From positions 102,702 to 166,701 of the forward strand of contig JBHLKM010000012.1 of NCBI GenBank assembly GCA_048886685.1: a DNA stretch of 64,000 nucleotides, read 5' to 3'. Shown here one piece after another: positions 42,955-64,000 of this stretch; the stretch's first letter is position 1, and every line of letters begins with the position of its first letter. The notes under the pieces are model-generated. The model worked only from the letters and a program-made list of their open reading frames with translations, was not told where the DNA came from and did no database searches. This DNA comes from Candidatus Hodarchaeota archaeon (GTDB taxonomy: Archaea > Asgardarchaeota > Lokiarchaeia > Sigyniarchaeales > SOKP01). The position numbers were made by a program, and so were the translations under genes.

Positions 42955-43181
42955 ATCTCAAGATATAAACTACAAATTTAATCTCTTTATTACTGTTTTT
43001 TTAAACCTACATTTAATATAATTTTAATGGTTTTTCTCAGATATAACAAATTTAAAAAAGTTCTGAGATTAGAGAAGAAATAATATCTACTTGTGATGAA
43101 TGAATTAATAAAGCCCTCATAATTTCTTATCAAATAGGCCTTATATAAACACTCTAAAACTGCCCATCACATTATTATACT

Positions 43182-43922
43182 CTAAGAGTAGAAAGGAAGA
43201 GTGCTGAATTTCTTTTGGATTTTAATAAATGGATGTAAAACCATTTTTTTGGTGAGTGCCGATGCATCTTCTATATCTGAGTAAATGGAATACCATTTTT
43301 CAGCCTTTCCAAACACAATTTTTAACATTGCCTTCTTATTAAGGAGAACATCCTTTGCGATATCCTTTGGCATATTCGCCATTGTTTCTTTAAAAACTTT
43401 ATCTATAGCAGTTTTTACCTTCAGTTTAGGTTTATCACGTAGTTTTTTAACTACACATTTCATATAATCTTCATATTCACTTAAATATTCACACATGTTT
43501 TCAACATAATCAACAATCTTTTGAGCATCAATTCTTTTCGAATCAAAACTTTGAAATGTCTCTCCAATCCTTTTTTTCGCTTTATCTATAAGACCATCTC
43601 TAATTTCTTTAATCAATACATCCACTGATTCCTCGCCTAAGATAACATCACCGGCCTTTTGTTCTAATCCTGAGAGTAGCCTTTTCTCTATTTCTAATGG
43701 TGAAGATTGATTGCTTTTATGAATATTTTTAATTTCTTCGACATGTTCTGTATCTTGTATATTCTCTATACGATCCTCTGCAATGTCTTTTTCCAATTGA
43801 TTACTATCTTGTTCTGTTTCCATGCAGGAAGGACAAATTCCGTTATATGCATGTACCTCACCTATCCAAGGCTCAGTATCATATACCCTTTTACATTTCT
43901 CACAATGATTATATTTTACCAT
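43182..43922 (-). CDS. Hypothetical protein with N-terminal Zn finger and helical C-terminus
   Basis: CEKC...CPSC; charged helical remainder. Confidence 0.55.
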   Translation of the reverse strand: MVKYNHCEKCKRVYDTEPWIGEVHAYNGICPSCMETEQDSNQLEKDIAEDRIENIQDTEHVEEIKNIHKSNQSSPLEIEKRLLSGLEQKAGDVILGEESVDVLIKEIRDGLIDKAKKRIGETFQSFDSKRIDAQKIVDYVENMCEYLSEYEDYMKCVVKKLRDKPKLKVKTAIDKVFKETMANMPKDIAKDVLLNKKAMLKIVFGKAEKWYSIYSDIEDASALTKKMVLHPFIKIQKKFSTLPFYS

Positions 43923-44087
43923 AAATATATCAATCCTTGCTTTTTATAAATAAATCTCCTTTAATTTAATACTGTTTGTTTAAATTTTCATTGCATTTTT
44001 TTCTTTTCATACTTCGTATACTTAAGTTCATCAATTCATTAAAATTAAATAATTTTGAACAAATATTGGAGATATTTCAATCAATTC

Positions 44088-46034
44088 CTACATTGATAAT
44101 TCTCCGAAAATCTCGTTAACTATAGCTCCAAGTAAAGGTGAACTATTTACATTTAATTCCTGAAAAGATTTAGCTGCTTTATTTAACATGTCCCAGATCT
44201 CTTTTTTATTTCTAATAGAATCTGAGAATTTATTCAATTTCTTTATGGCAGGATACGACTGTCCTTTACTGACGTAACAAGCTACAAAAGGCTCAACAGG
44301 TCTCATAGAGATAATATTTTCCCCAATTTTAATACGATCAATAGCTTTTGCAAAGATCTCAGAACTAAAAGCATTAAAAGCTGAGATAAAAGAGCTAAAA
44401 AGGTCACTGTAATCCCAATCTTTAATAAACGTATGATTGAAAAAAGAATTTCCAGCTTCACTCATTATTATAAGTAATATAGGATCTTCTTCAATCAAAT
44501 CTGGTGGTTCTATCATCTTTTTGCCCATCATATGATCGAGAGTTTTATCTATTTCAACAAATTTTAATCGTTCCTCTACAGGGGTGTCAGCTTTTAGCAA
44601 ATTTTCCCATTTTTCAAGCTGTTGTAATAATTTATCATGTTCGGTTGAAATTGCTCTAGCTAATAAGTGAAGTCCATGCTCATCCGCTATTCGCTCAGCT
44701 TTAGTGAATAACTGTCTTGCATCTCCCATATTCCTTTGAATTAATGCCAATTTACCTTGTAAGAGACTAGTTTCTGCCATCAAACGAAAAGAATGTTGAT
44801 AATCAGAATATTCGGATAATCGTTTAATAAGGAGATTAATCTCTTGCAATACTTCTTGTTTATTATATTTTTGTAGTTCAAGCAAGAAAATATCACATAA
44901 GTGAAGAAGTGCACGTTCGGTGAATTCCCAATTGATGATCTCCTCTTCAACGACCTGTCGAAGTATTTTTTTAGCTTCTTCTTGATCCAGAGAATTTAGA
45001 CTCATTTTTAGTAACAATGCTTCATTTACACGGCACGCCACATCAGCCATCTTATTTTTTTCTTGTTCGTTGATTTGTTGCATGCGTAATAAATACTGCT
45101 CTGCTTGCTTAAGAGAATAAGCATCTAGAGAAACAATAAAAAGAGAATCTAGACCAGCTATTAATCTTATTTTATCATCTAACTCTTCCCAAATCGTAAG
45201 ATTTCGATTTAGAACTTCCATAGCACGATCCAAATTCCCCTTTTGCCGGTATATTAATGAAGAATTATTAAGACATTGTGCGATGAAACTTTTGTTGCCT
45301 ATTTCTTCAGTAAGTGCTAAGCTCTGCTTTGTATATTCTAAAGCAAGGTCTAATTCACCTATTATACCGTGTATTACCCCGAGATCTTTAATGGTTCTCC
45401 AATCATCGCGTTTGCGGTAAGTTCTTTGAATTTTTAGACATCGTTCCATATAATCCATGGCTCGATCCAAGTTTCCAGTGTTAAAATAATATATACTATT
45501 AGTTTGTAAAGCTCGTGCTATTTCCTCATAGTTATCATGCTCCTCAGAAATTTTTAGGCTCTCTTCCCCATATTCCAAGGCTTTATCTATATTATGATCT
45601 TTATAAAAAGAAATTCTACTTTTGACTAATTTTAAAACAGCGTTTCTTTTTGCAAAGTCTGACAGTGATATATTAGTAAGTTGTTTAAGTAGATTTTCTC
45701 CTTTTGATAATAAATCTAATATTGCATCAAAATCTCCTAAATCCAATAAAATCCAGCTCTTAGAAATATAACTATCAATTAGGAAGGATTTGTTTCCGAG
45801 TTCTTGACTCATACTACAAGCCTGATCAGCAAATTTCAGAGCATCAGTAGATTGTCCAAGCTCATAAAAGATATTACTCTTTAATATTTGAGAAAAAAGT
45901 CGCTCTTCAGGAGTGAGATCAATTTTTTGTTCGAAATCTTCTAAAGCATTAAGAGATTTTAAATATAAACCTTCTTTAAAAAGTAAGTTTACACTTTGTA
46001 ATTTTTCACTAATTAAATCTGAGATTGGAATCAA
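44088..46034 (-). CDS. TPR (MalT/NAP-like) protein with C-terminal longin-like domain
   Basis: Repeated TPR-like helices; C-terminal LLIIMSEAGNSFF...LFSSFISAFNAFSSEIF. Confidence 0.75.
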   Translation of the reverse strand: MIPISDLISEKLQSVNLLFKEGLYLKSLNALEDFEQKIDLTPEERLFSQILKSNIFYELGQSTDALKFADQACSMSQELGNKSFLIDSYISKSWILLDLGDFDAILDLLSKGENLLKQLTNISLSDFAKRNAVLKLVKSRISFYKDHNIDKALEYGEESLKISEEHDNYEEIARALQTNSIYYFNTGNLDRAMDYMERCLKIQRTYRKRDDWRTIKDLGVIHGIIGELDLALEYTKQSLALTEEIGNKSFIAQCLNNSSLIYRQKGNLDRAMEVLNRNLTIWEELDDKIRLIAGLDSLFIVSLDAYSLKQAEQYLLRMQQINEQEKNKMADVACRVNEALLLKMSLNSLDQEEAKKILRQVVEEEIINWEFTERALLHLCDIFLLELQKYNKQEVLQEINLLIKRLSEYSDYQHSFRLMAETSLLQGKLALIQRNMGDARQLFTKAERIADEHGLHLLARAISTEHDKLLQQLEKWENLLKADTPVEERLKFVEIDKTLDHMMGKKMIEPPDLIEEDPILLIIMSEAGNSFFNHTFIKDWDYSDLFSSFISAFNAFSSEIFAKAIDRIKIGENIISMRPVEPFVACYVSKGQSYPAIKKLNKFSDSIRNKKEIWDMLNKAAKSFQELNVNSSPLLGAIVNEIFGELSM

Positions 46035-46208
46035 TTTTTAACCCATATAAATTTAAATAAAAAGAAGTATGATTTCCTTAAATAATTTTTTGGGAAATAG
46101 ATCTGATAATAATGTTATTTATAAGAATTCGTCTAATTACCTTAAAATTACTAAATATTATGTAAAACCTTAAAAAAAGTTTAAATCGTTTAGAACCGTT
46201 TTAAATTT

Positions 46209-46301
46209 ATGTCTATAGTTGGAATAAATCACGAAAAATGCTCTGGTTGTAAAAGATGCATAATTGATTCCACAAGAAGCTTCCTCCTCGAGCACCATTA
46301 A
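46209..46301 (+). pseudogene. Remnant of a 4Fe-4S-binding N-terminus (ferredoxin/nitroreductase-like)
   Basis: Hand translation MSIVGINHEKCSGCKRCIIDSTRSFLLEHH*: CxxCxxC present, the expected fourth C-P reads S-T, then a stop. Confidence 0.55.
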
Positions 46302-46412
46302 ATGTGGTAAGTTTAGAATAAAATTCTAATTAATCGATTTTTATTTTTCAAATAATTATGTAAAAGTTTTTTAAATTGATTTCTGAAAATCAAAATTGCA
46401 AAATGCGCAACT

Positions 46413-47456
46413 TTAGGTTAATGTTTTGAAGCTTGGGAAGGGTTCCATCCTATCTTCCCGTAATTGTAAAGTTATTGCTTCTTCAGGGCAAACTCTATGA
46501 CATAAACCACAACCAAGGCATTTATTCCTATCAACTTCAGCAAAATTTTCTTCCATTGAAATAGCATCAACAGGACATCTATCAACACAGGCATTACACG
46601 CAATACACAGATCCTTATCAATTATTGATTCAAAAATTGCATTCATGAACTTATGTTTATCAAAACCAAATTGAGTTATGCCTCTCATTAAACCACAACA
46701 ACATGGACAACAATTGCAAATATTTGATAAATGGGTTTTATTAGCTCCTGCATGTACTAATCCTGCTTCATCAGCTTCATCGATTATTCCTATTGCTTCA
46801 TCAGCAGTAATTTCTCTTCCTATACCGTTTTCAATATAATACTCAGCAGCAGCACCAAAACTTAAACAATTTTCCATAGGATATTCTTTATTACAGCTAC
46901 CTTTAATGAGTTTAGTTTCTTTTCTGCAAATACATTCTGTAACAGAGATTACTCTAGCATCTCGTATGCTTTGTTTAAGTTTTTGATAAGGTATTAGCAC
47001 TGTATCAGGTTCTATTGTTTCTTCGATCGGGATAACCTTAAAGCCTGGTACATTAAACTTACCTAGTTCAAATATATATTTTGTATCAAAATATTCTCGA
47101 TATAATTGAGCAAGATCCTCATCTATTTTTTGCACCGAATATTCATAGAGTCCAATCATAAAAGGTGCCAAATTATAGATGGTTATGTTACCCCGTCGGA
47201 TGCGGAAAAGTAGTCCTTTTTTAGCCAAAGATTCTAATTCCTTCTCGACTATACTTTTATCTAAACCGGTTCGTTTTGCTACTTGATTTGCAGTTTCCCT
47301 TTCCTGAGAAGGTTTCAATTTTAAAACAATTTCTGCATCTTCAGGTGAAAAAAGCCTTTTTAATATTTTTACTCCAACACCAGATGAGGTTTCAGGAAAA
47401 CCCAATGAGTTTTTATTTATATATTCTCTCAATTTCACATAAGATTCGTCAGACAT
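46413..47456 (-). CDS. 4Fe-4S dicluster protein with N-terminal HTH-like region
   Basis: CICR, ICNCCPCCC, two CxxCxxCxxxCP motifs. Confidence 0.82.
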   Translation of the reverse strand: MSDESYVKLREYINKNSLGFPETSSGVGVKILKRLFSPEDAEIVLKLKPSQERETANQVAKRTGLDKSIVEKELESLAKKGLLFRIRRGNITIYNLAPFMIGLYEYSVQKIDEDLAQLYREYFDTKYIFELGKFNVPGFKVIPIEETIEPDTVLIPYQKLKQSIRDARVISVTECICRKETKLIKGSCNKEYPMENCLSFGAAAEYYIENGIGREITADEAIGIIDEADEAGLVHAGANKTHLSNICNCCPCCCGLMRGITQFGFDKHKFMNAIFESIIDKDLCIACNACVDRCPVDAISMEENFAEVDRNKCLGCGLCHRVCPEEAITLQLREDRMEPFPSFKTLT

Positions 47457-47507
47457 TATTTTAACCTCAATAATATATTGTATTATTATTTATAGGGAAA
47501 ATTTAAT

Positions 47508-48677
47508 TTATATTCGACGAGGGGGCATCATTCGAGCAATTCTTAATGGTGTTTTAATCATAGAAATGGCATTTTCAGGACAGAAATATGCACAAACACC
47601 ACATCCTATGCAACTTTCCTCATCCCTTTCTGCAATATTATCTTCGTTGAGTTCTATTATCAATCGATGACATTTTTCTACGCATGTACCACAGCCTACA
47701 CATAATTCTGGATCAATCTGTGCTAAATAATTTGTATAGCTAGCAGTTGGTGCTACCATAAATCCTCCACCTTGAGGACAACAATCACTACAACAATTAC
47801 ATATCGCATCTTCACGAAGCTGGGGATTTGCGCGCAAATGCATAACTTTATGCACTAGCCCATCATCACGGATCTTTGCTAATATATCTAAAGCTTCTTC
47901 CTTAGTTATAAGTCTCGCAAAACCATGTTTCGCTGTATGTCGTGCACTCTTACCAAATGTAAAGCAACTTTCTCTGATATTCGTTTGTTTACAAGGATTT
48001 CCAAGAACTCTTGCATGGTTTCGGCAAAAACAATTACCAACAGCTATATCATCATATTTTTCAACAATTTCTTGAACTGTTTGAGTCGGTAAAATCATCT
48101 CTTCAGGAGATTCTATCGTTTCATCTACTACAATTTGAATATCTTCACCTGTTGCCTGATTAGTTAAGCTACTAATTATAGTTCTGTCGAATGGGATCGT
48201 TTTATCAATTGTGGATTTATATGTGTCGTAATTTTTTTGAATATTTTCTTTTCTTTTTTCGCGCAAACTATGCTGTAATCTAGCGAGTTCTTTAATATTA
48301 TCATCCTCTACATCAATATCTCTCATAAAAATATAATCAAAAATTCTACCAACTGTGAGTATACGGTAAATCGGTACACCTTCACTTGTAGGTTGATCCA
48401 TTATTACCCCATTTTTAGCAAGGGCGTCAACCTTTTCTAAGATTTCATCTTCACTTAATTCAATATCTTTATTTTTTAAACTCTCTTTCAATTCTTCCAT
48501 AGTTAATGAGCTTTTTTCTTCAAAGGCTCCTATAAAATCAGCATTATCCTCCCCAACAGCAATTCTTATTATTCCCACTAATTCTTCTGGAAGTTTAGTA
48601 CTTGGTTTTGCTCTAGTTATAATTTCGGTCGCTTTTATAAATTTTTGATCTAGATTTTTTTCTTCACTTATCGACAT
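47508..48677 (-). CDS. 4Fe-4S dicluster protein, paralog of 46413..47456
   Basis: CFCR, ICNCCSDCC, two ferredoxin motifs. Confidence 0.82.
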   Translation of the reverse strand: MSISEEKNLDQKFIKATEIITRAKPSTKLPEELVGIIRIAVGEDNADFIGAFEEKSSLTMEELKESLKNKDIELSEDEILEKVDALAKNGVIMDQPTSEGVPIYRILTVGRIFDYIFMRDIDVEDDNIKELARLQHSLREKRKENIQKNYDTYKSTIDKTIPFDRTIISSLTNQATGEDIQIVVDETIESPEEMILPTQTVQEIVEKYDDIAVGNCFCRNHARVLGNPCKQTNIRESCFTFGKSARHTAKHGFARLITKEEALDILAKIRDDGLVHKVMHLRANPQLREDAICNCCSDCCPQGGGFMVAPTASYTNYLAQIDPELCVGCGTCVEKCHRLIIELNEDNIAERDEESCIGCGVCAYFCPENAISMIKTPLRIARMMPPRRI

Positions 48678-48772
48678 TTTTAATCAAATCTACTTAAATT
48701 ATTGTTGTATAAAAATTTTGAGCTTAACAAAGCTCTTTTTTTTATATTTTTATTTGCTTAAAGACAGATGAT

Positions 48773-49015
48773 CTAAGACGATATTAAAGAGGGGCACACC
48801 CTTGTAGCCTCATTATCTAGAATTGTATTAAATTGACGTTTTGTTATTACTTCGAATAATTTCATTGCCCTAGGGTCGCTCCTATCCAGCTGCATATAAC
48901 CTAAAACTGGAAGATAAGCGTAACACATTAAAGATCTCAAGTAAGACTCCCATGCTTCATCAAAATCAAAACTAGTAATACCTCTTCCTTCTAATTGCTT
49001 AATGACTGATACTGT
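48773..49015 (-). pseudogene. 5'-truncated remnant of an APH/EcKinase-like phosphotransferase (C-terminal helices)
   Basis: Open frame with no start at its 5' end: ...IKQLEGRGITSFDFDEAWESYLRSLMCYAYLPVLGYMQLDRSDPRAMKLFEVITKRQFNTILDNEA...*; family by pattern recognition only. Confidence 0.6.
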
Positions 49016-49060
49016 TTAAAGCAAAACTTTAAATTCATTATATGACCAGAAGAACTTACT

Positions 49061-50419
49061 ATGGTTGAAAAGGAGCTTATACAATCTTCTCTCCATTTAA
49101 TTGACAATTGGTTAGATTATCAAGTATACATTAAGGAGATTCCTGGGCTTGCAGTGGGAATTGCCTTAGAAAATGAATTGATATTTAAAAAGGAATATGG
49201 ATATGCGAATCTGGAAAAGGAGGAAAAGTTAACTGATCAACATCTGTTTCGGATTGCATCCCATTCTAAATTGTTTACAGCAACAGCAATAATGATGCTC
49301 TATCACGAGGGAAAGTTATCAATTGATGATAAAGTCTCGAAATATTTACCCTGGTTTCAATCAGTAGAAGATAAAGAATTAGCACGCATTAGAATTCAGC
49401 ATTTATTAACACACTCAAGTGGAATAACTCGGGATGGTAATACAGGTCATTGGCTAAACTTCAAATTTCCTACGCTGGAGGAGATTAAAGCACAATTCCA
49501 AGAAAAAATCCGCTTTTTTGAACCAAGTGAAACGTTAAAATATTCTAATTTTGGATACGTGCTCTTAGGACAAATTATCGAGGAAGTATCAGGACAGAGT
49601 TATCAAGATTTTATTCAAAACCGCATACTTTCACCATTAGGAATGCAAAATACTGTTTTAGACGTAGATGATACTAATTTAGCTAACCATGCCACGGGAT
49701 ATAAACGTCGGTGGCCAAATCAAAAAAGAAAATCTTTTAACCACATACCCGCGAATGTCATGAGGGCAGCTACAGGACTAAGCAGTACTGTAGAAGATTT
49801 AACAAAATTTTATCAAGCTCACATGTTTGGTAATGAAATTTTAATCCCTGATTATATCAAGCGAGAAATGCAGAGAACCGAGTTTAAAGAATTTGAAGGT
49901 GAGTATGGATTTGGATTTTTTTTGCAAAAAATTGGAGAATCAACTCTTGTTGGTCACGGTGGAGGTTATCCTGGCTTCGTCACGCAATCCGGCTTAATTC
50001 AAGATCAGAAAATCGTAGTTGTAATTTTAAGTAATGCGGTAGATGGTTCTGCTGATATTCTCCTAAATGGTATTGTTGGAATTCTCAATAAACTCAAGAA
50101 AGATAAAGAGAAATTCTTGGTAAAAGAACAAGAGGATAGGTCAGACTTTTCTAGCATAATAGGTTTTTATGGAAGTGGTGATTGGGCTACACCTCTCTAC
50201 AGTCAAATTGGATCAAAATTGGTATCGATTGCTCCTGGATTAGATAATCCAATAGAATTTTTTATAATTTATGAACATGATCAAGGTTTTAAATTTATCA
50301 TTCCGAAGGGTTTTCCTTGGTCAGGTCAGCCTTTCGAGTTTATAGATGGACTTAAAGGAGAAAAAATCTTAATTGATGCTCACAAAGGAAAATTATTCCG
50401 ATTTTACTTTAAATATTAG
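49061..50419 (+). CDS. Serine hydrolase, beta-lactamase class C / D-aminopeptidase family
   Basis: SxxK (ASHSK), LLTHSSG, YSN, HGG. Confidence 0.9.
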   Translation: MVEKELIQSSLHLIDNWLDYQVYIKEIPGLAVGIALENELIFKKEYGYANLEKEEKLTDQHLFRIASHSKLFTATAIMMLYHEGKLSIDDKVSKYLPWFQSVEDKELARIRIQHLLTHSSGITRDGNTGHWLNFKFPTLEEIKAQFQEKIRFFEPSETLKYSNFGYVLLGQIIEEVSGQSYQDFIQNRILSPLGMQNTVLDVDDTNLANHATGYKRRWPNQKRKSFNHIPANVMRAATGLSSTVEDLTKFYQAHMFGNEILIPDYIKREMQRTEFKEFEGEYGFGFFLQKIGESTLVGHGGGYPGFVTQSGLIQDQKIVVVILSNAVDGSADILLNGIVGILNKLKKDKEKFLVKEQEDRSDFSSIIGFYGSGDWATPLYSQIGSKLVSIAPGLDNPIEFFIIYEHDQGFKFIIPKGFPWSGQPFEFIDGLKGEKILIDAHKGKLFRFYFKY

Positions 50420-50480
50420 AAAGTACAAAAACACTTAATATAACTGTAAGAAGATTAGGACATCATCTTTTTGGCTTGAT

Positions 50481-50574
50481 TTTCCATTGAATTTTTATGA
50501 AAATCAGACTCTAAATTTACCTTTCCAGCCCAATTTTCAATATAATTGGTACAAAATTTAAAAGGGCTCGATCC
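50481..50574 (+). repeat. Dispersed intergenic repeat copy R1 (degenerate, near full length)
   Basis: ...gaaaatcagactctaaatttacctttccagcccaattttcaatataattggtacaaaatttaaaagggctcgatcc aligns to R7. Confidence 0.8.
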
Positions 50575-51044: not shown

Positions 51045-51103
51045 TTTACCTTTTCATTTCAATTTCACAGACAATTGGGACTAAATTTAAAAAAGCTCAA
51101 ACC
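51045..51103 (+). repeat. Repeat copy R2 (3' half only)
   Basis: tttaccttttcatttcaatttcacagacaattgggactaaatttaaaaaagctcaaacc. Confidence 0.78.
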
Positions 51104-52551: not shown

Positions 52552-53346
52552 ATGTCAACAATTTATTTTACCAAAAATCCAGATAGAAAAAGATTTGTAG
52601 CATCATTACTATCTAGGTTAAGAAGTAATATTGAAGGAAAAGTGCTTATAAAAGTGAACCTTGTTTCATATAATCATTACCCTACAACAACTCATCCCGA
52701 AATGATTGAAGCCGTATATGATCAAATCAAATTGAACGCTTCAGAAATTATTTGTGGAGATGGTCATGGTGTAGACGTATCTACAAAAAAAATAGAAAAT
52801 CATCCAATAATAGAAAAATGTAAGGAATTAGGTATTTCTTTCGTAAATTTCTATGAACATTCTTTCAAAAAGATAAAAACCTCTCGAAATTTTACATTAA
52901 AAGTCTCTGAAATTCCATTTCAGCAGGATTTTATAATTTCTCTTCCAATTTTAAAGGATCATTTTATTTTAAACCTTACTAATGCTCTGAAAGATAAATT
53001 TGGATATTTATCAAAGACCGAACGAATAAAAATGCACACCAAGATCAAAAATATTAACAAAGGAATTGCTGAATTAAATACTGTACTTAAATCTAATTTA
53101 ATTATATGCGATGCCTTGAAAGTTTTAGTAAAAGCCCAAGAAGTTAGACATGGGGGAAAAGAAAAAAATCTGGGTTATCTTTTTGCTGGAACCGATCCCG
53201 TTGCCTTAGATTATTACGGATATAAGCTATTACGACCAATTTCGATAAAATTGGAAAACATAGATAATCCACTACAAATAAAATATATAAAATATGCTTT
53301 AGATTATGGAATTGGGTCTAAGGATTATAATTTGGAAGAAATTTAA
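52552..53346 (+). CDS. DUF362 domain protein
   Basis: VLIKVNL, TTHP, ISLPILKDH, ALKDKFG, DPVALD. Confidence 0.82.
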   Translation: MSTIYFTKNPDRKRFVASLLSRLRSNIEGKVLIKVNLVSYNHYPTTTHPEMIEAVYDQIKLNASEIICGDGHGVDVSTKKIENHPIIEKCKELGISFVNFYEHSFKKIKTSRNFTLKVSEIPFQQDFIISLPILKDHFILNLTNALKDKFGYLSKTERIKMHTKIKNINKGIAELNTVLKSNLIICDALKVLVKAQEVRHGGKEKNLGYLFAGTDPVALDYYGYKLLRPISIKLENIDNPLQIKYIKYALDYGIGSKDYNLEEI

Positions 53347-53355
53347 TTCTTTTAC

Positions 53356-53390
53356 TCATTGAAATCAGACTTTGAATTTACAATTTGGGA
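53356..53390 (+). repeat. Repeat copy R3 (internally deleted)
   Basis: tcattgaaatcagactttgaatttac joined directly to aatttggga. Confidence 0.7.
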
Positions 53391-53408
53391 TTTTCTGTTA
53401 AAATTTTT

Positions 53409-56263: not shown

Positions 56264-56353
56264 GGTAATCACATTTTAAATTAATTTTTTTTTCCTATTT
56301 AAAGGGATATTAAATAGTCTCAAACTTGCTGCACAATATAATCAAAAAGGAAT

Positions 56354-56398
56354 AAATTTGCCTTTCTATTCCGATTTCACTGAAATTTGGGACAAAAT
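56354..56398 (+). repeat. Repeat copy R4 (3' hairpin part)
   Basis: aaatttgcctttctattccgatttcactgaaatttgggacaaaat. Confidence 0.7.
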
Positions 56399-57294: not shown

Positions 57295-57870
57295 TTAGAC
57301 TCTGAATATGTCATATTCAGCTGTATTGTGTAAAAAGAACTTTTTTTCAGCTTTATAAGGAGGATAAGAAAATAATTCGATATGGGATATCTTCGCTATG
57401 AAAGGATTCTTAATCTGTAAATCAAGATAATTTTGGGAAAGTTCCACTGCTTTAGATATTTCTTGAGTTGGGAGCTCTAATAAAAGAGTCACATGTGGGC
57501 TCCACATACTATCTGGATTTCGATCCAAAACTACTCCTTGGTTTTCCAATGTCTCCAAACAGAGTTTTCTTAAAGAATGAAGATTGCTTGAATATTTTGG
57601 ATTTAGATAGAAAACATGGGTGGCAGGAAACGTAGTTAAACCAGTAAATTCAAGTGAAAAGGAGTTATATCTTGAAATTGCAGATTCCAATGCATCATAA
57701 TATTCTTGTTTTCTTAATTCTTCATGTTCAAATAATGTTATGTGGGGTGGTACTCGCACATATGCTCGACCATGCAAATCTGGGGAATCATTCAAAACTT
57801 TCCGTAATTCTATCAACCTTTTAGTTGATTGATCATCAAAGCAAACGATTATTCCAGTCCAAAAATCCAT
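57295..57870 (-). CDS. 2H phosphoesterase (2'-5' RNA ligase-like superfamily)
   Basis: Two HxT motifs: PHITL and PHVTL. Confidence 0.82.
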   Translation of the reverse strand: MDFWTGIIVCFDDQSTKRLIELRKVLNDSPDLHGRAYVRVPPHITLFEHEELRKQEYYDALESAISRYNSFSLEFTGLTTFPATHVFYLNPKYSSNLHSLRKLCLETLENQGVVLDRNPDSMWSPHVTLLLELPTQEISKAVELSQNYLDLQIKNPFIAKISHIELFSYPPYKAEKKFFLHNTAEYDIFRV

Positions 57871-57947: not shown

Positions 57948-57989
57948 CTTCTTAAAACCTTTTGTACTATAACGTCAATTTAAGATTTT
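57948..57989 (+). repeat. Left-arm motif L1, homologous to the sequence immediately 5' of R8
   Basis: cttcttaaaaccttttgtactataacgtcaatttaagatttt versus tttccttaaaagcctttggtactataatttcgatctaagatt at 63881. Confidence 0.65.
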
Positions 57990-59726: not shown

Positions 59727-59779
59727 TTTTTCAAAGGAATTTTCATGGAACTCAGACGCTGAATTTACCCTTCATGAAA
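59727..59779 (+). repeat. Repeat copy R5 (5' core)
   Basis: tttttcaaaggaattttcatggaactcagacgctgaatttacccttcatgaaa. Confidence 0.9.
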
Positions 59780-61685: not shown

Positions 61686-61738
61686 TTTTTTCACTAAATT
61701 TTAATTGAAATCAGACGCTGAATTTACCTTTTACGAAA
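61686..61738 (+). repeat. Repeat copy R6 (5' core)
   Basis: ttttttcactaaattttaattgaaatcagacgctgaatttaccttttacgaaa. Confidence 0.85.
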
Positions 61739-62120: not shown

Positions 62121-63017
62121 ATGGGAATTATTTACAAATTTTATGAACCTGATAATGATTATGAGCAGATTCAAGCCGATTTATACAATAATGCCATTGG
62201 AAAATATGGAACCCCAGGAAATGCAACAGCTGACCAGATCAAAGAAAGATATAGGGTCGAAGGTTTTGATAATAAAGGTGTCCAATATGCATTTGATGAT
62301 GATAAGCCAATTGCATATATTCAAACAAGGAAAGTAGTCGAAACAAAACAGGTTTATATCGGATATCCTTGGTCAACAACTGATTGTCCTGAAGAAGTTA
62401 AGGATGAGATGTTCAAAAATATGGTAAATTATCTATATACACGTGATTCTGAATATAAAATAGTTTGCGGGGTAATCCAAGATTCCTGGACGGATGTACG
62501 GGATTTTTTAAAAAAATACAATTGTACTGTAGAAAACGAGTATAAAACTTACCTTTTGGATATTACAAACCTTAGTAAACTCGATAATAGTGGTTATACC
62601 TCTAAAATCGGAACTTCTGATGACGAGGAGGCACTTTTTGAATTATGCATGTCTGAACCCGGTTTCAGTGATACCTTTCCAAATGAAGAAGCAGTGAAAA
62701 TTTTTGTTAAAGACGTCCTTAAGGAACTTGAAACTATACTTATTTACAAAAATGATGAGTTAGTATCCTCTGGCGCAGTTTTTTCTTATGAACCAGATAG
62801 AAATAATATTATTAATACACGATTTACAGCTACAAGAGATTATAAGTTCGAGTATTGGAAGGCATACGTTATTGAAATAGCTAAAAGATTAAGAAAGAAA
62901 GGTTTAGATGGAATGAAATTTACCTTATTTGATCGTCAACCAGAATATTTAGAATTTTATGATAAATATTCTTCAGGTTCTAGGACTGGATTTATATATG
63001 CAGTTCCGAAACCTTGA
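62121..63017 (+). CDS. Hypothetical protein, possible tandem GNAT fold
   Basis: 298 aa, two-domain alpha/beta pattern; no clear acetyl-CoA motif A. Confidence 0.45.
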   Translation: MGIIYKFYEPDNDYEQIQADLYNNAIGKYGTPGNATADQIKERYRVEGFDNKGVQYAFDDDKPIAYIQTRKVVETKQVYIGYPWSTTDCPEEVKDEMFKNMVNYLYTRDSEYKIVCGVIQDSWTDVRDFLKKYNCTVENEYKTYLLDITNLSKLDNSGYTSKIGTSDDEEALFELCMSEPGFSDTFPNEEAVKIFVKDVLKELETILIYKNDELVSSGAVFSYEPDRNNIINTRFTATRDYKFEYWKAYVIEIAKRLRKKGLDGMKFTLFDRQPEYLEFYDKYSSGSRTGFIYAVPKP

Positions 63018-63185
63018 ACGCTTTGAAAAATTTTTCAAAACTCAATAATTTTTCTCTTCTTTTTTTTTCTTTAATAATATCTAAAAAGAGTGATGATTAA
63101 AAATGGTATAATCAAATCAAAATGTTAAATATTCATAACCTTAGGAGAAATCTCATTGATTACGGTCTAAAGATTTAAAATTTTT

Positions 63186-63280
63186 TTTTCAAAGGAATTT
63201 TCATTGAACTCAGACGCTGAATTTACCTTTCCATTCTAATTTCACAGAAAATTGGGATAAAATTTATAAAGACTCGAATC
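63186..63280 (+). repeat. Repeat copy R7 (most complete core plus 3' hairpin)
   Basis: ttttcaaaggaattttcattgaactcagacgctgaatttacctttccattctaatttcacagaaaattgggataaaatttataaagactcgaatc. Confidence 0.93.
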
Positions 63281-63310
63281 AGTTATAGAAATTTTATAAA
63301 CTTCATTTTC

Positions 63311-63829
63311 CTAAGCTAGGTTTTCTGAGTTATCCCAATACCATAAGTGATCGCAATAATCATCTCCCTGCATCAATGTCTTATTTCTCCTAAGCTTAAC
63401 ACATGGATTACACGCCCTTGCATAAGCATGATCAGGGTTACAGACAACAAGATACCCAATATCCTCGGCTTCAAGCTCTTTAAACACCTCAGCATCAAGA
63501 CACTCAGTAACATGCAATCCCAGTTCTGACTCAGTATCCTTCACGTATCTGATAGTTACCCTGTTCCTGATCTCAATGGACTCATTGTCCTCTTTCTCTA
63601 TCCGTATAAAATCAGCGAACTCGTTAACGGGTCCAATTTCTTGAAGCTCTTCTGTAACCCAATTAAACATGTCTTCATAGAAGGTTTTTTCAACGATCTC
63701 GTGAACCCTTGCTTTACCAATTGTCTTCTCCATTTTTCTAACAAGGAGCACGAGGGGACGGTATTTCTCTGTAAGGTATTCTTTGTAGGTTAGCGTCTTT
63801 TTGCCTCGGTTGATGATTGACTCACTCAT
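63311..63829 (-). CDS. L-2-amino-thiazoline-4-carboxylate hydrolase family (ATC_hydrolase) protein
   Basis: VTECLDAEVF...IGYLVVCNPD...LRRNKTLMQGDDYCDH; about 42% GC in two 60-nt lines counted. Confidence 0.85.
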   Translation of the reverse strand: MSESIINRGKKTLTYKEYLTEKYRPLVLLVRKMEKTIGKARVHEIVEKTFYEDMFNWVTEELQEIGPVNEFADFIRIEKEDNESIEIRNRVTIRYVKDTESELGLHVTECLDAEVFKELEAEDIGYLVVCNPDHAYARACNPCVKLRRNKTLMQGDDYCDHLWYWDNSENLA

Positions 63830-63880
63830 GATATTGTGAAGGAAATGTGTAAGTTATTCTAATAAGTCCAAAAGGAGTAA

Positions 63881-64000
63881 TTTCCTTAAAAGCCTTTGGT
63901 ACTATAATTTCGATCTAAGATTGTTTTCAAAGGAATTTTCATTGAACTCAGACGCTGAATTTACCTTTCCAACCCAATTTCAAAGGAAATTAGAATAAAA
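63881..64000 (+). repeat. Repeat copy R8 with left arm L2, runs off the window end
   Basis: 63924-63971 is identical to 63186-63233 over 48 nt; followed by acccaatttcaaaggaaattag. Confidence 0.93.

Follow-up and report, generated by a model that had tools for sequence, protein, structure and literature searches.

The right-hand end of this stretch of Asgard archaeal DNA (the window, 64,000 nt) raises the question of whether a single gene of unusual composition, enclosed by two identical direct repeats, is a mobile cassette and, if so, to what kind of system it belongs. An earlier note had described exact 48-nt direct repeats bracketing one gene, and the description is borne out: window positions 63186–63233 and 63924–63971 match at 48 of 48 positions with a start-to-start spacing of 738 nt, and one intact ORF lies between them. 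Beyond the exact repeat, similarity continues at ~90% over 80 nt (63183–63262 vs. 63921–64000). The unit opens with a junction site, or core (63185–63233, plus strand, 60.0 bits with nhmmer; the exact repeat is 63186–63233), the invariant centre of which occupies 63204–63227 and reads TTGAACTCAG (63204–63213), ACG (63214–63216), and CTGAATTTACC (63217–63227). There follow a small plus-strand hairpin at the left end of the unit (TTCTAATTTC-ACA-GAAAATTGGGA, 63234–63257), an intact minus-strand gene of 172 aa assigned to PF14196 (ATC_hydrolase, 63311–63829), and a conserved promoter-like segment, module A, which lies in the interval from the gene start to the right site (63870–63922). The right core (63924–63971, plus strand, 59.9 bits, centre at 63942–63965) is identical to 63186–63233, and behind it a second plus-strand hairpin (CCCAATTTC-AAAG-GAAATTAGAAT, 63973–63996) opens the next unit, which is truncated by the contig end at 64000. 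On the other side, an AT-rich remnant (63055–63184) separates the block of a 298-aa gene from the left site. Read on the reverse strand, 63147–63170 resembles the closing codons (...TVINEI) of genes from one family, intact 3′ ends of which lie directly after the hairpin in units on three other contigs of the genome (C15:109567, C19:89557, and C25:3942); the segment is probably the leftover of a lost cassette that once separated the 298-aa gene from the left site.

The gene itself had been called compositionally foreign from a partial count of ~42% GC, and the full count agrees. The ORF has a GC content of 41.2% (0.412), which ranks at the 99.2nd percentile among 3026 ORFs of the genome, and a GC3 of 43.9% (0.439, the 99.8th percentile), against a genome mean GC3 of 22.4% (0.224, sd 0.036); the neighbouring ORF of 298 aa (62121–63017) is ordinary in both respects (GC 0.326, GC3 0.227). 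The ORF matches the PF14196 profile at an E-value of 2e-16 and 61.6 bits (gathering cut-off 28.1) over profile positions 8–142 of 145, and the protein carries all of the columns that are invariant across 27 homologues. It is assigned to the PF14196 family, with an enzymatic activity that is predicted. No close orthologue was found in 29 other species of the genus, where the best match has 32% identity, and in an alignment-based scan of genome contigs the best matches among named genomes are Bathyarchaeia, at 42–48% identity. A maximum-likelihood tree places the clade of the window gene, together with 15 metagenome proteins, as sister to a Bathyarchaeia-dominated clade (support 99/97) and the PF14196 paralogues of the genus itself in a separate clade (support 99/98). 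Judged by its sequence, the gene is foreign in origin and Bathyarchaeia-like.

The expectation that the nearest neighbours would fall outside the Lokiarchaeia held for the deeper sister clade, which is Bathyarchaeia, and failed for the closest relatives, which have 74–91% identity and occur on AT-rich metagenome contigs, three of them bearing the site. Seven such metagenome loci were recovered (L058–L064), and in all of them the ATC homologue has a GC3 of 0.39–0.45. Homologues with identities as low as 63% hold this value on contigs of 28–36% GC, so that the composition has not drifted toward that of the host despite clear divergence of the sequence. Because the clade has diversified within contigs that are AT-rich and bear the site, with no loss of its high GC3, the gene must already have circulated for a while in a Loki cassette pool and is not a fresh import.

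The earlier note had further ranked this cassette as the most recently captured one. With the contig ending 29 nt past its right site and no polarity known for the array, a rank as the latest capture is no more than a possibility. The only hint of recency is the unusual identity of its two sites, which fits a young unit without being proof of one. When 9316 site pairs are compared in a 48-nt frame shifted by 2 nt relative to the exact repeat, no more than 0.8% attain 46/48, and the best value among 88 adjacent co-oriented pairs, 47/48, is the one computed for the ATC-unit pair in that shifted frame. Adjacent sites are on average no more alike than random pairs (means of 37.0 and 36.8 of 48, respectively). 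A search for a contig that continues the end of C12, the contig of the window, found none, and neither a circle nor an empty site was observed. The route through the left neighbour is uninformative, since homology of the 298-aa gene ends 130 nt before the site. A locus in another genome (L158, G059:C234, ~707–775) has a core end and hairpin that agree letter for letter with the right site of the window, through ...GAAATTAG, next to a left-hand block that differs from that of the window; this locus may show what follows the C12 contig end.

The two sites of the ATC unit belong to a larger family. An 18-nt core motif is found at six places in the window, always on the plus strand and always in the last 14 kb, compared with 0.03 occurrences expected from shuffles, and an iterated nhmmer profile recovers 46 copies in the 4.4-Mb genome (G000). 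All 46 cores are intergenic, and they form co-oriented clusters on contigs C12, C15, C25, C34, C19, C20, C5, and C2; several contigs (C12, C19, and C6) end in or beside a copy. The repeat is modular, with an optional module A on the left (~55 nt), a T-run, the core of ~50 nt, and an optional hairpin with an A-rich tail on the right, and individual copies carry this common unit at differing lengths. The array of the window, in which every site lies on the plus strand, illustrates this range: it begins with a full site at 50480–50527 and continues with a right-half site that consists of TTTACC, hairpin, and A-rich tail and is missing its left half (51045–51094), a degenerate site reduced to the centre (53356–53382), a decayed site with an internally deleted centre and a hairpin (56345–56398), and two further full sites (59727–59774 and 61686–61731). 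An orphan module A with no core (57954–57987) lies upstream of a LigT-like gene on the minus strand (57295–57870). Of the genomes sampled for the motif, 22 of 23 within the genus carry it, as do 2 of 16 from neighbouring genera, and the combination of core end and hairpin is found in 32 of 52 genomes of the genus. A role of the core as promoter or terminator of particular genes is ruled out by the gene orientations around the 46 cores, which are random on either side (left 24:19, right 22:23). Where the left-hand gene is directed away from the core, its start lies 73–125 nt from it, an interval that corresponds to module A, which by its position looks like a promoter or 5′ region carried beside the site.

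Whether these sites mark points of exchange was assessed through the linkage of 137 sites to their flanks. The sites came from seven metagenome contigs and, within the genus, from G000 and some 20 further genomes; flank homology was scored at a distance from the repeat (past −75 on the left and past +105 on the right). Seventeen site pairs share the left flank only, 14 share the right flank only, and none share both. Similarity within the repeat follows the same division when position contrasts are computed with 8 + 8 independent clusters. At core positions 1–19, left-linked pairs stand at 0.87, right-linked pairs at 0.68, and the background at 0.74 (left above right, p = 0.0013), and at positions 20–44 the three values do not differ (0.88, 0.87, and 0.87). 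Farther to the right the relation is reversed, with 0.58, 0.72, and 0.59 at positions 45–75 (right above left, p = 0.056; right above background, p = 0.009) and 0.53, 0.71, and 0.54 at positions 76–104 (right above left, p = 0.0099); throughout positions 45–104 the right-linked pairs exceed the background at p ≤ 0.009. The history of the flanks thus switches within the invariant centre, TTGAAATCAG-ACG-CTGAATTTACC, and since no pair shares both flanks and the linkage switches in the centre, the sites are exchange junctions. For the left site of the ATC unit, the exchange region would be 63204–63227, where the flank linkage switches. In single pairs the central triplet tracks neither flank and position 44 already goes with the right side; these cases are few, and they suggest that the exchange region may narrow to roughly CAGACGCTGAATTTA.

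The 24-nt centre is invariant over about 50 species, in which syntenic DNA is just 70–75% identical. Aligned by eye, the arms of the centre (TTGAAATCAG-ACG-CTGAATTTAC) are complementary at 7 of 10 positions. The hairpin behind the core is linked as a whole to the right-hand flank, and this linkage holds genus-wide for the hairpin type at the left end of the ATC unit. A crossover in the loop of that hairpin had been considered on the grounds that 63233–63243 is a perfect complement of 63986–63996 and that the two sites of the ATC unit look like reciprocal hybrids. It is ruled out by the right-flank linkage of the hairpin and by its arms, which vary independently over 52 sites of the genus (T-G in 4, C-A in 5, and T-A in 1).

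The ATC gene provides a case of the same behaviour at a single locus. In three of the metagenome loci (L059, L060, and L061) the gene is preceded at ~100 nt by the same core, with the relative orientation seen in the window, and homology to the window spans the gene, module A, and the core, ending right after GAATTTACCTT. Past this point all four contexts differ, and the 3′ side of the gene is different in every context. Two other loci depart from this arrangement, with no core beside the gene in L058 and the next core 1.5 kb away in L063. Since the gene recurs with module A and the core and with differing flanks, the travelling unit consists of gene, module A, and left half-site, as the linkage test predicts. 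The term cassette, used in the earlier note, is supported, the unit being part of a repeat-bounded array whose repeats behave as exchange junctions.

The arrays as a whole are enriched in foreign-looking genes. Array ORFs have an elevated GC3 (0.266 vs. 0.225, p = 4e-8) and 8 of 58 exceed the 99th percentile of the genome, with the ATC gene ranking third; as the array genes are compositionally shifted, the arrays are acquisition hotspots. Collinear synteny with the genus, at 70–75% DNA identity, stops near window position 43,000 (about 43,036), and to the right of this point single genes recur elsewhere at far higher identity and with unrelated flanks. The variable region begins ~7 kb before the first core, and this coreless part (43100–50480) holds TPR, Fe-S, and beta-lactamase-fold genes that have relatives on other contigs in other species. 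Array genes found elsewhere are 88–96% identical, compared with the 70–75% of syntenic core DNA. A DUF362 gene (52552–53346) has 88–90% DNA identity in seven other species, a 102-aa gene recurs at 88% inside the array of G011, the 298-aa gene is 95–96% identical in 2 of 51 species (G040 and G023), and several blocks are 93% identical between the arrays of G016 or G061 and those of G000. The homology around the DUF362 gene comprises the gene and ~80 nt of promoter, with flanks that differ in every species, and one copy (L151) has 23S-trailer-like sequence upstream.

Many of the block breakpoints fall just outside a gene and off any core, as for the DUF362 gene and for the 298-aa gene, the homology of whose block to G040 and G023 stops at 63051/63055. 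One block of 963 nt, 93% identical between L163 (G016:C56, 3341–4294) and G000:C25:10226–11188, lies between two cores in both genomes and is in opposite orientation relative to them. At another junction, both sides of the degenerate site at 53356 (window 53351–53397) are matched in L148 (G014:C107, 3942–4902), which has 961 extra bases at the equivalent of this site and no recognisable core, giving an occupied and a nearly empty version of one junction. The off-core breakpoints, the inverted block, and the common occurrence of half-sites and remnants point to a second, less orderly reshuffling process, and the arrays, read from their sequences, are patchworks that this process has also shaped.

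A further property of the site family is its link to the 3′ end of the 23S rRNA gene. Contig C15 ends in the last 80 nt of the 23S rRNA, with an array of 22 kb directly behind; the terminal segment (G000:C15:111001–113072, L066) runs to 23S rRNA positions 2908–2987 on the minus strand. The trailer of ~115 nt is duplicated beside the last core of this array, and the first gene block of L066 (~930–1875) is bracketed by two such trailer copies (78% identity) in place of cores, so that the trailer itself seems to serve as a junction as well. At this native 23S end, the only one assembled, no core directly follows the trailer and the core does not occur inside the 23S gene. Orphan copies of the 23S end (the last 40–80 nt plus trailer, at 80–90% identity) are present at C15:96875–96983, C2:289123–289253, and C2:289898–290099 of G000, far from any assembled rRNA gene. 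At five places in three genomes (one in G000 and two each in G005 and G001), a copy of the 23S end or trailer lies 7–53 nt from a core in reverse orientation, and L059 has a trailer-like piece adjacent to its ATC gene. Taken from these sequences, the site family probably arose just behind the 23S trailer. The link is not one of present location for most members, as the majority of arrays are not beside an rRNA gene and the single-contig genome G005 alone has five array loci.

The search for an enzyme covered several scales. No recombinase was found in the 21-kb variable region of the window, and neither a recombinase nor a common gene family was found at 13 array borders in three genomes. The genome encodes a single Xer-type tyrosine recombinase (PF00589), located on a contig other than that of the window (C2:183383), and G005, G022, and G023 likewise have a single Xer-like PF00589 gene each. 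No resolvase, Y1 transposase, or Cas1 was found in the genome, and one sub-threshold TnpB-like match is distant. The IMG/VR database had 0 exact matches to a 22-nt form of the centre; a virus or plasmid carrying the site was sought with a looser pattern as well, and the matches obtained were attributable to chance (best 18.8 bits).

Our favoured reading, which we consider probable with some reserve, is that the 738-bp unit belongs, as a single cassette, to a genus-wide array system that is integron-like and yet not an integron. Sites of ~50 nt, co-oriented and conserved in sequence, separate blocks of accessory genes, and the two sides of each site have independent histories. The point of exchange lies in the 24-nt centre, an imperfect dyad around a variable triplet (ACG/ACT), and a cassette would extend from one site centre to the following one; the ATC cassette would then comprise the right half-site, the hairpin, the ATC_hydrolase gene on the minus strand, module A, and the left half-site. 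Two sites would most likely be joined by a recombinase that acts in trans and recognises the centre as double-stranded DNA. Between two direct copies, a block would be excised as a circle with one site, and the circle could insert again at any further copy, whether in its own cell or in a related one. The circular intermediate, the conservative site-specific chemistry, and the enzyme would all be components of such a mechanism, and given the junction behaviour of the sites the circle of 738 bp in this case is a sound prediction. A broader reading is plausible, if somewhat short of probable: that the arrays represent an undescribed gene-capture system of Loki-type Asgard archaea, with a 24-nt double-stranded site derived from behind the 23S trailer and an enzyme in trans, either a repurposed host Xer-type recombinase or an unrecognised protein, acting on arrays at many loci that would import genes from other archaeal phyla, e.g., Bathyarchaeia, and hand them on from one species to another.

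A serious rival to a dedicated enzyme, even if an unlikely one, is homologous recombination at the short centre that all copies have in common. The ~50-nt repeats would act as portable homology, on which host recombination excises, integrates, and swaps blocks. A recombinase is missing both near the arrays and as a candidate typical of the genus, the switch point lies in the only segment common to all copies, where crossovers must fall, and the off-core breakpoints and the one inverted block indicate that other recombination is active. The invariance of 24 nt over about 50 species with DNA at 70–75% identity nevertheless suggests sequence-specific recognition, the arrays are strictly co-oriented, and adjacent copies have not been homogenised (mean 37.0/48, as for random pairs), so that gene conversion must be weak. 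A distinctly smaller probability is given to the view that the sites are att duplications left by successive small integrative elements behind the 23S trailer, which would make the array a graveyard and the identical pair its youngest member. The expected traces are found in the position of the C15 array directly against the 3′ end of the 23S, the copies of this end or of the trailer 7–53 nt from a reverse-oriented core at five places, the trailer-like piece by the ATC gene in L059, the differing lengths of the common unit, as for attL/attR pairs of different elements, and the status of the identical 48-nt pair as the most similar of 88 adjacent pairs. Such elements should have brought an integrase, however, and none is borne by any array examined; units of 0.3–0.7 kb are too small to encode their own machinery, no viral contig has the site, and most arrays are not by an rRNA gene (as with the five loci in G005).

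Two further explanations remain. A selfish element of the MITE or REP type, or a regulatory intergenic element, inserted between existing, immobile genes would look like the repeat, which is short and non-coding, lies between genes in many copies, and has small inverted repeats. Orthologous loci should in that case share both flanks, yet 0 of the 31 flank-sharing pairs do, which largely refutes the explanation; moreover, the copies are clustered and co-oriented instead of dispersed, bear no consistent relation to gene orientation, and enclose genes that are accessory, compositionally shifted, and mobile between species. It is accordingly held to be very improbable. Least probable of all is an assembly artefact, in which contigs of metagenome-assembled genomes would be misjoined at the repeat and so acquire false differing neighbours. 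The termination of C12, C19, and C6 in the repeat and the status of the genome as a MAG with an estimated contamination of 8.4% invite this suspicion. Against it, the ~50-nt site is shorter than a sequencing read, so that reads span the junctions, and arrays of the same architecture occur in the single-contig genomes G005 and G021 and in about 50 independent assemblies or metagenome contigs.

The site-bounded cassette system favoured here can be set beside several known arrangements. pdif modules of Acinetobacter plasmids and the IMEX elements at dif use short double-stranded dyad sites on which the host Xer recombinase acts in trans. Like the Asgard cassettes, these modules have no enzyme within or beside them, and the genome analysed here has one Xer-type tyrosine recombinase. 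Unlike the Asgard sites, which are direct, pdif sites alternate in orientation, and dif generally has two 11-bp arms around a spacer of 6–8 bp, whereas the Asgard centre has imperfect arms of 7–10 bp around a variable triplet of 3 nt. Tandem integrative elements at the 3′ ends of tRNA and tmRNA genes are similar in that direct repeats, in the Asgard case probably derived from beside a stable RNA gene, border successive insertions and have unequal lengths, and in that one array begins at the 23S 3′ end; they differ in that the Asgard target is an rRNA trailer, the units are single genes without integrases, and most arrays are away from rRNA genes. A further comparison is with the hypervariable region HVR2 of SAR11 (Wilhelm et al. 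2007, PMC2217521). Like the Asgard arrays it is a hypervariable island of accessory genes, and it is reported to lie next to the rRNA genes. To our knowledge, neither a repeated junction site nor a cassette structure has been described for it.

The closest comparison is with integrons. Integrons and CALINs share with the Asgard arrays the co-oriented sites, the small accessory cassettes, the exchange between genomes, the genes from other phyla, and, in most cases, the absence of an adjacent integrase. The attC site, an imperfect inverted repeat that forms a long hairpin, is conserved in structure and not in sequence, whereas the Asgard site is conserved in sequence. When both strands of three copies were folded as DNA together with their flanks, z was close to 0 (−1.6 to +0.6), and attC-like folding was rejected. 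No Rfam family matched the repeat. Integron ORFs are mostly co-oriented and promoterless, whereas array genes in the Asgard genomes occur in both orientations and some cassettes include a promoter-like module. Integrons also have a platform of IntI and attI, which CALINs by definition lack; the Asgard arrays have neither adjacent, occupy many loci per genome, and are linked to the 23S trailer. The archaeal integrons described by Ghaly et al. 2022 (PMC9668308) have canonical attC structure, IntI, and mostly co-oriented ORFs. These canonical archaeal integrons were the nearest match in a full-text literature search, which found no published description of the present array family, and Wu et al. 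2022 offered nothing comparable, nor did the other papers found. The family is a site-bounded cassette array with a non-attC site, and it would be categorically new if its enzyme were novel.

No known organisms are more closely related to eukaryotes than the Asgard archaea, and the way in which foreign genes reach these archaea is a standing question. To date, the canonical integron (Ghaly 2022, PMC9668308) is the sole cassette-capture system reported from them. The array family works like an integron, yet its site is defined by sequence, its genes lie in either orientation, each genome has many loci, its copies are linked to the rRNA trailer, and it has no integrase nearby. Through it, genes move between species of the genus, and at least one comes from another phylum. 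As a substrate on which the mechanism can be approached, the 738-bp ATC unit, with a perfect site at each end, is the smallest and cleanest.
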